DNA of 64,000 nucleotides from a virus (taxonomy: Duplodnaviria; Caudoviricetes), in the IMG/VR virus record IMGVR_UViG_3300033475_000013, positions 13,944 to 77,943 of that record, one strand, 5' to 3'. Numbering within the stretch: the stretch's first letter is position 1; each line of letters opens with the position of its first letter. This document shows positions 3,719 to 14,171 of the stretch, in pieces. Made by a program: the position numbers and the translations under genes. The notes beneath the pieces are model-generated. The model ran no database searches, was not told where the DNA came from, and saw nothing but the letters and a program-made list of their open reading frames with translations.

Positions 3719-4189
3719 ATGAAGAGAATCCCAATTCACTTTAAAAAAATTACTCCTGAGGTTTTAAAGGAGGCCGCAATGATTGTTGATCAAGGATCAA
3801 GAGTTCGGTTTTACAAGATTAAAAACAGCACGGTGCACAAGGTTTATATCAAAATCTTCCGGATAGATGATGATATGGATACGGAATTTATGTACCACCA
3901 TTTTGGCGGATACTATTACGTGAAGGACAGTAAGTGCATTCGTGATCAGAAGAACTACTGGCTGAACATCCAGCAGCATCGGGCTGTTCGGCTGATGCAA
4001 TTACTTCTGCCGTACCTGACGCTCAGGAAAGAGGTTGTGGAGTCTATTTTGGCTTATTATGATTCGAAGAAAAAGAATAAGAAGCGGAGATTGACGGCTG
4101 AAATGAAGGCTGAGCGGGATCAGATTTATAAAAATTACAAGGAAGCACAAGCCAGGTTTATGGAATGTGTTAAAAAATCAAAATCTTAA
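3719..4189 (+). CDS. Degenerate single-motif LAGLIDADG-fold protein
   Basis: AAMIVDQGSRV occupies the LAGLIDADG helix position; LLLPYLTLRKEVVESILAYY resembles the I-CreI-type LxPFLKLKxKQA motif; canonical acidic residues altered. Confidence 0.55.
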   Translation: MKRIPIHFKKITPEVLKEAAMIVDQGSRVRFYKIKNSTVHKVYIKIFRIDDDMDTEFMYHHFGGYYYVKDSKCIRDQKNYWLNIQQHRAVRLMQLLLPYLTLRKEVVESILAYYDSKKKNKKRRLTAEMKAERDQIYKNYKEAQARFMECVKKSKS

Positions 4190-4788: not shown

Positions 4789-4820
4789 AAAGCCTCCCTG
4801 ATCAGGAGGCTTTTTGTTTT
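4789..4820 (+). terminator. Terminator-like hairpin before the tRNAs
   Basis: AAAGCCTCC-CTGATCA-GGAGGCTTT followed by TTGTTTT. Confidence 0.6.
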
Positions 4821-4823
4821 TAT

Positions 4824-4899
4824 CAGGTATTGGGGAAGTCCGGTCGTTCCCGCCACACTTGGAATGTGGAGCTCGTTGGTTCAAATCCAGCATGCCTGA
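4824..4899 (+). tRNA. tRNA-Pro(UGG)
   Basis: Acceptor CAGGTAT/ATGCCTG; anticodon arm CCACA-ctTGGaa-TGTGG; T loop TTCAAAT. Confidence 0.9.
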
Positions 4900-4906
4900 C
4901 TTTTAT

Positions 4907-4979
4907 TGCCGGATGGTGGAATTGGCAACACATCAGACTTTGATTCTGAAAATTACAGGTTCGAGACCTGTTCCGGCAA
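4907..4979 (+). tRNA. tRNA-Gln(UUG)
   Basis: Acceptor TGCCGGA/TCCGGCA; TCAGA-ctTTGat-TCTGA; T loop TTCGAGA. Confidence 0.9.
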
Positions 4980-4981
4980 CT

Positions 4982-5055
4982 GTGATCGTGGGCAAGTGGC
5001 TTAAGCCGCGAGATTGTGGTTCTCGTATTCGCCGGTTCGAATCCGGTCGATCACC
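4982..5055 (+). tRNA. tRNA-His(GUG)
   Basis: Acceptor GTGATCG/CGATCAC, discriminator C; CGAGA-ttGTGgt-TCTCG; T loop TTCGAAT. Confidence 0.9.
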
Positions 5056-5065
5056 AAAAATTAAT

Positions 5066-5145
5066 GCCCCTGTGACATATGCAAACTGGCACAGCTGACG
5101 GTTTTAGACACCGTGTTTTTGAGAGTTCGATTCTCTCCAGGGGTA
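5066..5145 (+). tRNA. Atypical tRNA-Leu(UAG)
   Basis: Acceptor GCCCCTG/CAGGGGT; ACGGT-ttTAGac-ACCGT; T arm GAGAG-TTCGATT-CTCTC; 25-nt D region and 6-nt variable loop. Confidence 0.7.
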
Positions 5146-5149
5146 CAAT

Positions 5150-5223
5150 GGCTGCATGGCGAAACTGGCAGACGCGTCAGACTTAAAATCTGAATTTTAC
5201 GAGTTCGAATCTCGTTGCGGCTA
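5150..5223 (+). tRNA. tRNA-Leu(UAA) with short variable loop
   Basis: Acceptor GGCTGCA/TGCGGCT; TCAGA-ctTAAaa-TCTGA; T arm ACGAG-TTCGAAT-CTCGT; 5-nt variable loop. Confidence 0.85.
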
Positions 5224-6267
5224 CAAAAATTTCTCGATCAATGTTCTGAAAGCGAGTTCGGCTTGCTGTTCAACGACGGCATTTCCTGCCATGCGAAGAA
5301 GGTCTTCTCTAAAGTTGTACCCATTAATTGCATAACCCAGGCTGGATTCAAGACGAGGCTCTTCGAATTCGAATTGATTTGGTCCTTGTCCTGCTGGAAA
5401 AAGACTTGTCTGGGCAATTGATCGCACCGATTCCTCCCATCGCTTCTTTGCATTTCCATGCCGGCCGTGTCCTTCCAGTCGAGACTGGAAGGAGTTGTCC
5501 ATTGTCTGACTTGAACTGGTAATGCTGTTCCTCCTTGTTGAAATTTTGTTTTTCTGTTGGTTGAACTTGATAACGATGTCGTCCACTTTCTCACTGTCTC
5601 CGCCAGATATAACGGAACGGTGTTCTGGTTGGCATTTGACTTCCGATAATCCAAGCACTTCTGCAAGGTCTCCTCGTCTCTTACTCTGTTCAGAGCAGTA
5701 AGTGTCGGCCACGGCAAGGATGAAGAGACGTTTTCTAAGATGTGGCGTGCCCACTTGCTCCGCAGCGAATATGTCCGCTTCAACTTTGTAACCAAGGCTT
5801 GATATTCGTTCTCTGACTTCCTGGTATCCGATATTGAGGTGGTTTGCGACGTTTTCGAAGAAACAGAGAACAGGTCTAACTGCGTCGATTCCATGTTCAA
5901 AGAAGGGGAAGAGATGTCGTGGATCGGCGACTCCGTTCTGTAGCCCGGCTTGTGAAAATGGTTGACAAGGATATCCTCCAGTGAGGATGTGTATTTTTCG
6001 GTAAAACTGTTCGTACGGGAATGTTTTAAGATCAGTCCAGATAGGCACTGGAGCCACCATACCTTGTTCCATTTTCGCTGCCACATTGTAGGCGGCAAAG
6101 GATTCGATTTCCACAATAGCGGCATATTGGAGAATTCTAGCTTGATACATTTTTTCTCCTTGATGTGGGTACCGTAGTGCTGCAATTCCTCGTTCCAGTC
6201 CTCGATCAAGTCCACCTTGTCCGTGGCAAAGGCTGAGTGTAGCGAGTGTTTTTTCGGGATTATCCAC
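5221..6267 (-). CDS. C5-cytosine DNA methyltransferase, catalytic (alpha-like) chain
   Basis: Motif I LSLCHGQGG, IV GGYPCQPFS, VI FFENV, VIII HLRKRLFI, X LRMAGNAVV; GTG start. Confidence 0.9.
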   Translation of the reverse strand: MDNPEKTLATLSLCHGQGGLDRGLERGIAALRYPHQGEKMYQARILQYAAIVEIESFAAYNVAAKMEQGMVAPVPIWTDLKTFPYEQFYRKIHILTGGYPCQPFSQAGLQNGVADPRHLFPFFEHGIDAVRPVLCFFENVANHLNIGYQEVRERISSLGYKVEADIFAAEQVGTPHLRKRLFILAVADTYCSEQSKRRGDLAEVLGLSEVKCQPEHRSVISGGDSEKVDDIVIKFNQQKNKISTRRNSITSSSQTMDNSFQSRLEGHGRHGNAKKRWEESVRSIAQTSLFPAGQGPNQFEFEEPRLESSLGYAINGYNFREDLLRMAGNAVVEQQAELAFRTLIEKFL

Positions 6268-6269
6268 AT
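5238..6269 (-). CDS. Overlapping alternative-frame protein, candidate MTase beta chain (TRD plus motif IX)
   Basis: 343 codons with no stop over the whole MTase gene; WPT/WTT(P) repeats, DWKD, DQLPRQV and LNPAWVMQLMG; ATG start 2 nt after the upstream stop. Confidence 0.75.
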   Translation of the reverse strand: MWIIPKKHSLHSAFATDKVDLIEDWNEELQHYGTHIKEKKCIKLEFSNMPLLWKSNPLPPTMWQRKWNKVWWLQCLSGLILKHSRTNSFTEKYTSSLEDILVNHFHKPGYRTESPIHDISSPSLNMESTQLDLFSVSSKTSQTTSISDTRKSENEYQALVTKLKRTYSLRSKWARHILENVSSSLPWPTLTALNRVRDEETLQKCLDYRKSNANQNTVPLYLAETVRKWTTSLSSSTNRKTKFQQGGTALPVQVRQWTTPSSLDWKDTAGMEMQRSDGRNRCDQLPRQVFFQQDKDQINSNSKSLVLNPAWVMQLMGTTLEKTFFAWQEMPSLNSKPNSLSEH

Positions 6270-6271
6270 CT

Positions 6272-6442
6272 TTAATTTTCTAATTTTTTTAAATTCTCCA
6301 ATTCAAATATTGCTTCTGTCAAAACATCAATGGCAACATCGATTGTTTTTGAACCAATAACAAAAACCATCACACCACGGACAGTGACATGATATGTCGG
6401 TATACTTTCCGGCTTCTCTGACTTTTCTTTCTCGTTACTCAT
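6272..6442 (-). CDS. Small hypothetical protein (56 aa)
   Basis: Manual translation MSNEKEKSEKPESIPTYHVTV...LKKLEN; fills the gap exactly. Confidence 0.55.
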   Translation of the reverse strand: MSNEKEKSEKPESIPTYHVTVRGVMVFVIGSKTIDVAIDVLTEAIFELENLKKLEN

Positions 6443-7833: not shown

Positions 7834-9450
7834 TCAAAAAGGCAAATCTGGATTATCTTCACTCTGTTCTTCAGTATGATTCTCCATCACAATACTCTCG
7901 CTCGGATAGGCATCAAACAAGGATGTCTGCTGCACAGCTTCAGCCATCGGTATCAACCTGCCACCTTCATCATTAATCATCAACCGCCAGGTTGCACTCG
8001 GATCATTGATCTTACCATCCTTCACAATCCATCCTTTATTTCTAAACTCACGGATGAGTTCAGCCGTCTTATGCTTGGATGTTTTAAAATTCGATTTTAT
8101 TTCTGCTGTTAATTCTCCACCTTTCAATACGCCACCATCAAAAATCTTAATGAGGATATCACGCTTGGTATCAACCTCTGTTGCTTCAGGTGCAGGAACA
8201 CCAACAATAAGCGGAAGTGAATCAGGCTTCGGACCATGCTCCAGGTAGAACGGTTCAAACTCTTCATCACGGGCACTCTCGCATTTCACCTGGGTGATGC
8301 CAGTCTTATCATCTTTATTCAGTTCGTATGTCAGCTGAGCTTTGTTGAGTAACTCCGTTCCGATGTGTCCACGCGCATTACCATCTGTCTTATTCAAATG
8401 CAGCACTTCAATAATGTGTACATTGTATTCCAGAATTAATGATTCAAGCCACACAATCAATTCAGTCGTTTCAATCGGATCATTGATGTTGTTCATCAGA
8501 TCACGCACGCCATCAATGATGATAATCTTCGGTTTATTCTTCCAGTACTTGATGGTGTACTTGATAAAATCACGACGCTCTGCCGGCGACATACCACGCA
8601 TGAAGAAGATCGGAAGTTCAATACCAGTTAGTTTTTTTAATTTCTCGCGCATGTTCCATACGTGTGACTTTCCCTGCTCAGTATCAAAACATAGTACATC
8701 ATCAGCAGTGGCTGATTTGTTCTGAAGAAAATATTGATAGACAAGCCATACTAAAAATAAAGTCTTACGTGACTTTTTCTTTCCCAGGAGCAATGAATGG
8801 TTTCCGAGTGTAGCGACAATTATTCCGAAGATGGTGATGAGAGGAATTTCTGCTGGAGGTTGTTCGGTAAGCAGGCGCGTCTTCCAGAGTTCTTTTATTT
8901 TTGATTCATTATTTTCAACTTCAATTCCATCCTGAAGAGCTTTGATGGAGTTGAGCGATGTTTCAAGAATTTCAAAAGCATCCGTAGTATCTTCGTAAGA
9001 TTGATGATGCAGCGATGATGCAATTTCAATGATGCGCCGCTTGATGGCCATCTCCACAATGACCCTGGCGTGATATTCAATATTGGAAGCAGAAGAAACT
9101 TTAGATGTTAGCTCAGCGATGTAATAAAAGCCACCAACAATTTCGAGTTTACCTGTTTTTTTAAGATGATTACCAACTGAGCGCATATCAATTGGATCTT
9201 TCTGCTGGTGCAGATCAGAGATTGCAGTATAAATTTCTTTATGCTTCTCTGCATAGAAATGTTCGGCTAATAAAAATTTTTCTGTGATTAAAAATGCATC
9301 TTTCTCCAGCATTATGCTACCAAGAACGGCTTCCTCCATCTCGATTGCCTGTGGCGGAAGCTTACCCAATGATTCACTAATGTCTCTAGGAACCAATTTC
9401 TGATTTTTCCCTTGACTCAAGCGTAATGGTGTTTCTCTTTTACCCTCCAT
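7834..9450 (-). CDS. Replicative helicase-like protein: DnaB N-terminal domain + AAA_25/RepA-type ATPase + C-terminal helical domain
   Basis: LGKLPPQAIEMEEAVLGSIML (DnaB_N); Walker A GKKKSRKT; FDTEQ; Walker B IIIDG; HLNK...RGHIGTEL; acidic DLPF tail. Confidence 0.8.
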   Translation of the reverse strand: MEGKRETPLRLSQGKNQKLVPRDISESLGKLPPQAIEMEEAVLGSIMLEKDAFLITEKFLLAEHFYAEKHKEIYTAISDLHQQKDPIDMRSVGNHLKKTGKLEIVGGFYYIAELTSKVSSASNIEYHARVIVEMAIKRRIIEIASSLHHQSYEDTTDAFEILETSLNSIKALQDGIEVENNESKIKELWKTRLLTEQPPAEIPLITIFGIIVATLGNHSLLLGKKKSRKTLFLVWLVYQYFLQNKSATADDVLCFDTEQGKSHVWNMREKLKKLTGIELPIFFMRGMSPAERRDFIKYTIKYWKNKPKIIIIDGVRDLMNNINDPIETTELIVWLESLILEYNVHIIEVLHLNKTDGNARGHIGTELLNKAQLTYELNKDDKTGITQVKCESARDEEFEPFYLEHGPKPDSLPLIVGVPAPEATEVDTKRDILIKIFDGGVLKGGELTAEIKSNFKTSKHKTAELIREFRNKGWIVKDGKINDPSATWRLMINDEGGRLIPMAEAVQQTSLFDAYPSESIVMENHTEEQSEDNPDLPF

Positions 9451-13905: not shown

Positions 13906-14171
13906 AAAGTATCCTGCTTGAAGATAAACAACGAGTGCAGATTACAAACTCACTATAGCCAAGGCTAGTAAACTGTTCTAGCAGTTAATGTTTATTGTAG
14001 AGGTAGTTTTATGAATAGATTCATGTAACAGTGTCCAGCGGCAAAGGGATTGGGGCGGCGATGCTCATGAACGTGATACCGTATATAATCTAGGATAGCC
14101 ATTGTTGAGACCTAGATGTAAATGGGCTTGAGATTAAGATTATTCCACTAGAAAATTGGACAGGATATTTT
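13906..14171 (+). ncRNA. Candidate structured non-coding RNA
   Basis: Closing stem AAGTATCCTG/CAGGATATTT; ATAAACA/TGTTTAT junction with three hairpins; ATCTAGG/CCTAGAT hairpin with a possible pseudoknot; no ORF. Confidence 0.5.

Follow-up and report, generated by a model that had tools for sequence, protein, structure and literature searches.

A phage cytosine methyltransferase gene open in two overlapping frames: a probable two-chain enzyme

Introduction

How does a C5-methyltransferase gene of about 1 kb come to be open in two frames of one strand, and what might the second frame encode? This question is raised by a virus of the Caudoviricetes (Duplodnaviria), IMG/VR virus record IMGVR_UViG_3300033475_000013, of which positions 13,944 to 77,943 were analyzed. 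This stretch of 64,000 nucleotides (nt) is referred to here as the window, and all coordinates are those of the window. On its minus strand, two open reading frames (ORFs), termed frame A and frame B, share 1,030 nt, which is ~98% of both genes. Frame B lies in the +1 frame relative to frame A. The two frames probably encode two chains of a single C5 methyltransferase, in a variant of the arrangement described for M.EcoHK31I. The gene is laid out as follows.

5221..6267, minus strand: coding sequence of frame A (ORF list), GTG start, 348 amino acids (aa), the chain with the C5-methyltransferase large (catalytic) domain.
5238..6269, minus strand: coding sequence of frame B, ATG start, 343 aa, the candidate recognition (small-domain) chain with an extra N-terminal region.
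6265..6269, minus strand: ATGTG double start, in which the ATG of B overlaps the GTG of A.

A preliminary description of this DNA had proposed two same-strand ORFs of 348 and 343 aa overlapping for more than 1 kb, with an ATG at 6269 and a GTG at 6267 combined as ATGTG. It had also assigned the methyltransferase motifs to the GTG frame, and the WPT/WTTP repeats and the segment LNPAWVMQLMG to the ATG frame. The ORF list reproduces the overlap, the frame assignment is confirmed, and the double start is kept among relatives of the window gene. The third minus-strand frame of the gene contains 16 stops in 349 codons. A hand calculation from this stop rate, (1-0.046)^343, puts the chance of an open frame of 343 codons at ~1e-7. 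The guanine-plus-cytosine (GC) content of the two-frame gene is 0.46, and that of its neighbourhood is 0.35-0.48.

Frame A encodes a catalytic chain

Frame A was readily identified. Pfam family PF00145 matched its residues 11-259 at 1.2e-24, which corresponds to profile positions 4-219 of 324. Because this match stops at profile position 219, frame A lacks the rear half that a C5 methyltransferase normally has. PHROG 363 (DNA methyltransferase) was matched at 3e-41. The motifs of the large domain, namely I, IV (PCQ), VI (ENV), VIII (RxR) and X (GNxV), are all present. In an alignment of 76 frame A homologues, the columns P-C-x-P-F-S, E-N-V, R-x-R and G-N-x-V-V were invariant. The profile of these homologues aligned with E. 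coli Dcm over motifs I-VIII at an hhalign probability of 97%, and with residues 74-180 of M.HhaI. Three parts of frame A are referred to below.

5953..5970, minus strand: motif IV PCQPFS with the catalytic Cys, frame A; columns invariant in the 76 homologues.
5386..5595, minus strand: frame A residues 225-294, filler or linker over the recognition modules of B (AlphaFold2 and alignment).
5224..5397, minus strand: conserved C-terminal part of frame A, made up of a segment like WPAxPG..Q.EWE.PR, motif X (GNAVV, 5272-5286) and the final helix.

In an AlphaFold2 model of A built on the 76-homologue alignment, residues 1-210 and 320-348 were predicted with confidence. Residues 331-348, comprising motif X and the last helix, reached a predicted local distance difference test (pLDDT) score of 96, and motif X was packed on the large domain. 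The top Foldseek matches for this model were M.HhaI and M.HaeIII, over ~200 columns.

In the filler, the pLDDT is below 50 at residues 225-271 and 276-294, the length varies, and the alignment of homologues shows no consensus. An unstructured region at the position of the target-recognition domain (TRD) and motif IX had been claimed from the sequence, and the low pLDDT and the absent consensus bear this claim out. No small domain (a TRD plus motif IX, placed between motifs VIII and X of one chain) was revealed in frame A by Pfam coverage, pLDDT or alignment. Judged from the Pfam and profile alignments, the AlphaFold2 fold, the Foldseek matches and the low pLDDT at residues 225-294, frame A is a complete large domain with a predicted disordered filler in place of the small domain. 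Just before motif X lies a conserved WPAxPGxxQxEWExPR segment that is absent from the preliminary description. In the C-terminal part as a whole, P291, Q298, E302, D322, R325, G328, N329, V331 and V332 are invariant.

Frame B encodes a candidate second chain

Frame B matched nothing in Pfam, PHROG or NCBIfam. It nevertheless belongs to a large family. Homologues of frame B numbered 103, most of them spanning 95-100% of B. A profile of 71 frame B proteins matched 30,444 clusters (50% identity) at E<=1e-3 and 3,030 at E<=1e-30. Among the best 150 of these profile matches, most start at the same Met. Four parts can be distinguished along the protein.

5970..6269, minus strand: frame B residues 1-100, conserved N-terminal domain over motifs I-IV of A (consensus, pLDDT and synonymous-site constraint).
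5721..5834, minus strand: frame B residues 146-183, predicted long helix over motifs VI-VIII of A (AlphaFold2 and alignment).
5352..5711, minus strand: frame B residues 187-306, WxTP repeat modules beginning at W187 of WPTLTA, candidate target-recognition region.
5319..5351, minus strand: LNPAWVMQLMG of frame B, motif-IX-like segment (alignment and hhalign).

The N-terminal domain has the consensus MWIIPSNHPLYS...LMWKSKP...W..W.RVYW..LFGR.LKPS, with near-invariant W53, S55, W67, W72, L81, K82 and S84. In an AlphaFold2 model of B built on the 71-sequence alignment, residues 21-50 had pLDDT values of 81-94, followed by values of 64-84 up to residue 100. The long helix was predicted with a pLDDT of ~90 at residues 151-170, and L163, R170 and K172 within it are near-invariant. 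A wide VIA-align search with the B model retrieved the long helix only, against generic coiled coils at Z <5. The frame B profile matched nothing among PDB sequences even at E 10, and a search of the ESM Atlas with frame B returned only viral clusters named "hypothetical protein".

Frame B residues 187-313, used in tblastn, matched phage cytosine methylase loci. The number of WxTP modules differs between frame B homologues. In LNPAWVMQLMG, residues L307, W311 and L315 are invariant, and N308, P309, V312, M316 and G317 are near-invariant. This tail fits the pattern L-[TN]-P-x5-L-[MQ]-G of Dcm motif IX.

The first module deserves a separate remark. The module WPT.TA..RVRDEETLQKC...NANQNTVPLYL (frame B residues 187-222; 5604-5711, minus strand) is close to those of the homologues P0095, P0096, P0097 and P0099. 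Its identity to high-GC homologues is 74-78% over 10-12% of B, and for P0096, P0097 and P0099 it is 76-78% over 12%. Such likeness across otherwise distant low- and high-GC homologues suggests that recognition modules may have been exchanged between lineages.

Selection on the N-terminal part of frame B

Is the first half of frame B more than an open frame? The third codon position of A is the second codon position of B, so the synonymous sites of A test B directly. In window-like loci (mean A identity 0.47), four-fold third positions at conserved A residues were identical in 51% of cases, as against 32% in a codon-resampled null. Frame B identity in these loci was 0.32, as against a null of 0.21 with a standard deviation of 0.03. 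As a control, genes that flank the two-frame gene in these loci were picked by hand; they are 39-58% identical, and 137/447 (31%) of their synonymous sites were identical. In three largely independent pairs, 66/121 sites of the two-frame gene were identical, which differs from the flanking value by z ~4.9 (hand calculation). A control that mixed all loci and strands was dropped, as it was confounded by high-GC loci and antisense ORFs.

Judged from these sites, purifying selection acts on the N-terminal part of frame B. The preliminary description had suggested that the ~190-aa N-terminal part of B, with no obvious methyltransferase role, may have a function of its own. That this part exceeds mere filler now finds support in the synonymous-site constraint and in the confident partial fold. 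Because of its own N-terminal consensus, the synonymous-site constraint of A and the AlphaFold2 fold, frame B is taken to be a real protein throughout and not merely open in its first half. As in an overprinted gene pair, both frames are open, each has a start of its own, and conservation exceeds what the frames impose on each other, the excess having been measured for the N-terminal part of B.

Conservation of the two-frame layout

The layout was followed in 51 viral loci retrieved using frame B. Frame B matched, by tblastn, phage genes annotated as "cytosine methylase" in the +1 frame of the annotated coding sequence. Klebsiella phage 2 LV-2017 and Phage C75C1 have the same pair of co-extensive ORFs. 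The informative loci among the 51 have motifs IV, VIII and X in a common frame and the WxTP and LNP..LMG elements in the +1 frame relative to it, with the exceptions of L021 and L047. An E. coli prophage gene shows the same motif split between frames. The count of open frames was restricted to 35 complete loci. Both frames were open almost end to end in 35/35, at GC contents of 0.46-0.66. Many relatives are found at GC 0.59-0.66, and the open pair is also held by complete loci at GC 0.46-0.54. The motif split proposed for the window gene is therefore conserved in informative relatives, and the openness of both frames in homologues, for which the preliminary description had called, was found in every complete locus and is joined by the 30,444 clusters of B, which is not interrupted.

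Both exceptions can be described. In L047 it is the third frame that contains the tail of A. In L021 (2015-3103) the N-terminal part of A is joined in one frame to the modules of B, and motif VIII is deleted. In a further homologue, P0101, motifs I-VIII of A are joined directly to the tail of B, and all modules are lost. L021 and P0101 were considered as ancestral or fused single-frame forms and rejected, because motif VIII in the former and the modules in the latter are lost. By their sequences, they are probably deletion derivatives and decayed copies.

The inspected GenBank phage records and RefSeq E. coli prophages annotate frame A only. A megablast search of the region against a phage collection returned no near relative. 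The E. coli prophage A protein L055 was considered as the crystallised CP-933R prophage methyltransferase 3g7u, and this was rejected since it matched no PDB chain at E<=1e-10.

Two further observations were made on relatives of the gene. The ORF of the frame B homologue P0012 (477 aa) carries NUMOD4 and HNH_3 (PF07463, PF13392), which has the appearance of a homing endonuclease joined to a two-frame gene or inserted beside it. Antisense ORFs of 107-144 aa run across the two-frame gene in L005, L009, L011, L014, L023 and L006, with ~40-91% identity between loci. Avoidance of stop codons in the two sense frames may have produced these conserved antisense ORFs as a side effect.

Start sites and initiation signals

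How might two frames be initiated on one transcript? Two solutions were found. In window-like loci the sequence ATGTGG is kept in 11/12, and for the start of frame A these loci use either the overlapping GTG or an ATG located 7 nt upstream. The stretch of frame A without an ATG is 117 nt long in the window and 147 nt long in most relatives. Sources named for relatives in this group are Bacteroidota, Dyadobacter and Chitinophaga. Hosts of the Bacteroidota type do not generally rely on Shine-Dalgarno pairing.

In the proteobacterial group, the start of B lies ~115 nt inside A. An in-frame ATG within GATGTC is found in 12/14 diverse loci, and (A/C)GGAG or AGGGA stands 8 nt before this ATG in 8-10/14 loci. 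The Shine-Dalgarno-like motif is made up of an Arg codon of frame A, AGG or CGG, followed by a Ser codon, AGY. AGG is a rare Arg codon in enterobacteria, and its use in frame A of this group suggests for that reason that it was chosen for a ribosome-binding site. Judged by these conserved elements, frame B has initiation signals of its own: ATGTGG in the window group, and an internal Shine-Dalgarno sequence with an ATG in the enterobacterial group.

Two pattern matches lie upstream of the double start of the window gene.

6293..6322, minus strand: promoter-like site TTGACA-18-GAGAAT, 10/12 matches, ~24 nt upstream of the double start (pattern match only).
6368-6394, minus strand: terminator-like hairpin just upstream of the promoter-like site (pattern match only).

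A leader from this promoter-like site, if used, would be very short and A-rich.

Proposed mechanism and rival explanations

The following mechanism is proposed. One transcript would be read in two frames, from the ATG for B and from the GTG 2 nt on for A, to give two full-length proteins that are initiated independently on one mRNA. Protein A would provide S-adenosylmethionine binding and catalysis, with motifs I-VIII followed by the filler, the conserved segment and a motif X folded back onto the core. Protein B would supply the small domain for A, with its WxTP modules for recognition and a motif IX core, and its N-terminal domain and long helix may fasten it on A. Together, A and B would assemble into an active and probably orphan phage methyltransferase that shields phage DNA from host restriction. 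The filler of A would accommodate the exchange of B modules, provided that its frame stays open. It seems somewhat more probable than the contrary that the whole 1 kb is dual coding, in the sense that B has, besides its recognition half, a folded domain of ~100-185 aa over motifs I-VIII of A with a role of its own (clamping or other).

Several points weigh against this mechanism. Translation of both frames, binding of A to B and a joint need for both in activity are steps that we infer. The GTG of frame A is not preceded by a clear Shine-Dalgarno sequence; an A-rich leader of this kind fits hosts that do not rely on Shine-Dalgarno pairing. AlphaFold2 confidence is low to middle in the recognition region of B, and it is low at residues 105-141 and in the tail. 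The whole-B model found no fold match above noise in a Foldseek search against the PDB. When the B profile was aligned to Dcm, the single hhalign match was the motif IX of Dcm (PRRLTPRECARLMGF), at E 0.06 and a probability of 0.9%, which is not significant alone. The designation of the B modules as a TRD is a candidate one, based on their position and on the part missing from A. In the high-GC group, synonymous sites show a smaller excess, 0.41 as against a null of 0.29. Furthermore, the conservation of each frame is partly forced by the other, and the two were separated only for the N-terminal part of B.

Could the two frames instead be joined into one polypeptide? Two programmed frameshifts would be needed, a +1 shift after motif VIII and a -1 shift after LMG into motif X. 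The resulting block order A-B-A would be that of an ordinary C5 enzyme, in many loci a constant 65 nt separates the motif-IX-like segment from motif X, and the junctions are tight, FILA and WPT being, for example, one base apart. Yet such a path would skip the invariant A residues P291, Q298 and E302, directly upstream of the LNPAWV.QLMG stretch, and it would not account for a frame B that has a conserved start of its own and that, over ~185 codons ahead of the supposed shift, is kept open, is conserved and shows selection. Both junctions are conserved in both frames, with motif VIII and P291/Q298/E302 in A and with L163/R170/K172 and LNPAWV.QLMG in B; dual conservation of this kind would be anticipated if there are two proteins but not if there is one. 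Programmed frameshifts such as those of prfB (+1) and dnaX (-1) have a conserved junction site and a zero frame that ends soon after it. Here the junction alignment shows no conserved slippery or stalling site after motif VIII, frame A has no stop after that motif, and both frames are open to the end. The yield of two serial shifts would also be low. As in-frame variants of the junctions, only deletions were found, which lose motif VIII (L021) or modules (P0101). A frameshifted single chain is thus very unlikely.

The other two alternatives concern the nature of B. It could be a translated protein with a task of its own, for example in DNA binding, anti-defence or regulation, beside an A that is self-sufficient or differently targeted. 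Its size, much larger than that of the M.EcoHK31I beta chain, the weak statistics of its motif IX match, and an N-terminal domain and helix that resemble nothing known in the searches made would all suit such a protein. This explanation is nonetheless considered unlikely, as A has no folded small domain or motif IX, the conserved tail of B stands exactly at the motif IX position, one motif before X, and fits the Dcm pattern, and the two frames are strictly linked across all loci examined. At the other extreme, B might be untranslated, as a by-product of composition or of frame A codon choice, a frameshifted pseudogene or an assembly error. Long alternative ORFs are indeed common in high-GC genes, the range to which many relatives belong, and gene callers record one frame per locus. 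The window gene, however, has 16 stops in its third frame at a GC content of 0.46, and the layout is kept in ~50 loci of very different composition. With synonymous sites under more constraint than those of flanking genes, a start that is conserved and an N-terminal fold predicted with confidence, this last explanation has hardly any likelihood. The reading of A and B as two chains of one methyltransferase is accordingly the one taken further below.

Genomic neighbourhood

Several elements surround the two-frame gene. Four tRNA genes (Pro-tgg, Gln-ttg, His-gtg and Leu-taa; 4824-5224, plus strand) are convergent to it. The 3' end of tRNA-Leu (5224) overlaps or abuts the stop codon of frame A (5221-5223) on the opposite strand. 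The tRNA cluster is immediately preceded, at 4789-4813, by a terminator-like hairpin. An HNH endonuclease-like ORF (3719-4189, plus strand) matched PHROG 5046 at 1e-4, and a DnaB-like replicative helicase (7834-9450, minus strand) matched PHROG 19 at 6e-26. The HNH-like ORF, the DnaB-like helicase and the tRNAs mark the contig as that of a phage.

Significance

What would follow if both chains are made and needed? Every inspected record would then mis-describe the enzyme by giving frame A only, in a family that is very large. Frame A expressed alone would give an inactive or unspecific protein, and a prediction of specificity from the annotated protein would look at the wrong frame. If dual coding is true, tens of thousands of phage and prophage genes labelled "DNA cytosine methyltransferase" would be fully overlapping two-protein genes and, among the same-strand overlapping gene families of DNA phages, would rank with the largest and the longest. 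The disordered filler of A would then offer free coding space, so that recognition modules could be swapped in B. The gene would also offer an uncomplicated natural example of two components of a single machine encoded by a same-strand overlap of 1 kb. It would be useful for the study of overlapping-gene evolution, of recognition-module exchange and of split-methyltransferase assembly, the last of which matters for targeted methylation tools built on M.EcoHK31I. The members in E. coli and Klebsiella prophages make the two-frame gene directly testable.

Comparison with known methyltransferases

The closest described system is M.EcoHK31I of E. coli HK31, which has the target YGGCCR and consists of alpha and beta chains that are both required (PMC2836561; work of Lee, Kam and Shaw, 1995). 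The beta chain, which carries motif IX, is read from within the alpha gene in another frame, while the alpha chain keeps motifs I-VIII and X together with the TRD (PMC2836561). The N-terminal 42 residues of beta are needed for its association with alpha (PMC2836561). The window pair was compared with this enzyme by description. On that basis, both have a second frame inside the first gene, which in the window family is conserved in relatives, and both keep motifs I-VIII and X together on the first chain. They differ in the content of the second chain: the beta chain of M.EcoHK31I, a small peptide nested in the alpha gene, bears motif IX alone, whereas in the window the whole candidate recognition region, with its WxTP modules, is on B, and A is predicted to be disordered there. 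The window pair also differs in its ~98% overlap, in starts that are 2 nt apart and in the extra ~185-aa N-terminal domain of B over the catalytic domain. M.EcoHK31I had been named as a precedent in the preliminary description; this holds for the second chain in an alternative frame but not for the distribution of the TRD, which is on alpha there, with motif IX alone on beta (PMC2836561). Apart from M.EcoHK31I, no description of this layout was found in the literature searched, whose coverage left most subscription journals outside. Consultation of a review on frameshifting (PMC5009743) likewise yielded no description of it.

A different kind of split is represented by M.AquI. This enzyme reportedly consists of two polypeptides from adjacent genes, with one cut in the variable region and motifs IX and X on the second chain. 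The window pair shares with this reported arrangement that there are two polypeptides, but its motif X is kept with motifs I-VIII and its genes overlap completely. A split of the M.AquI type was rejected for the window pair because motif X stays with motifs I-VIII.

Single-chain enzymes complete the comparison. M.HhaI, M.HaeIII and E. coli Dcm (PF00145) have the same large-domain fold, the same motifs and the same block order along the DNA as frame A. Unlike in these enzymes, the small domain of the window gene is absent from the catalytic chain and, if present, lies in the +1 frame. The methyltransferases of the Bacillus phages SPR and phi3T are multispecific, with tandem TRDs in a single chain read in one frame. 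They have in common with the window family a variable number of tandem recognition-like modules between motifs VIII and IX. The modules of SPR and phi3T belong to a single chain in one frame, whereas those of the window family lie in a second frame, and some of them are common to distant relatives.

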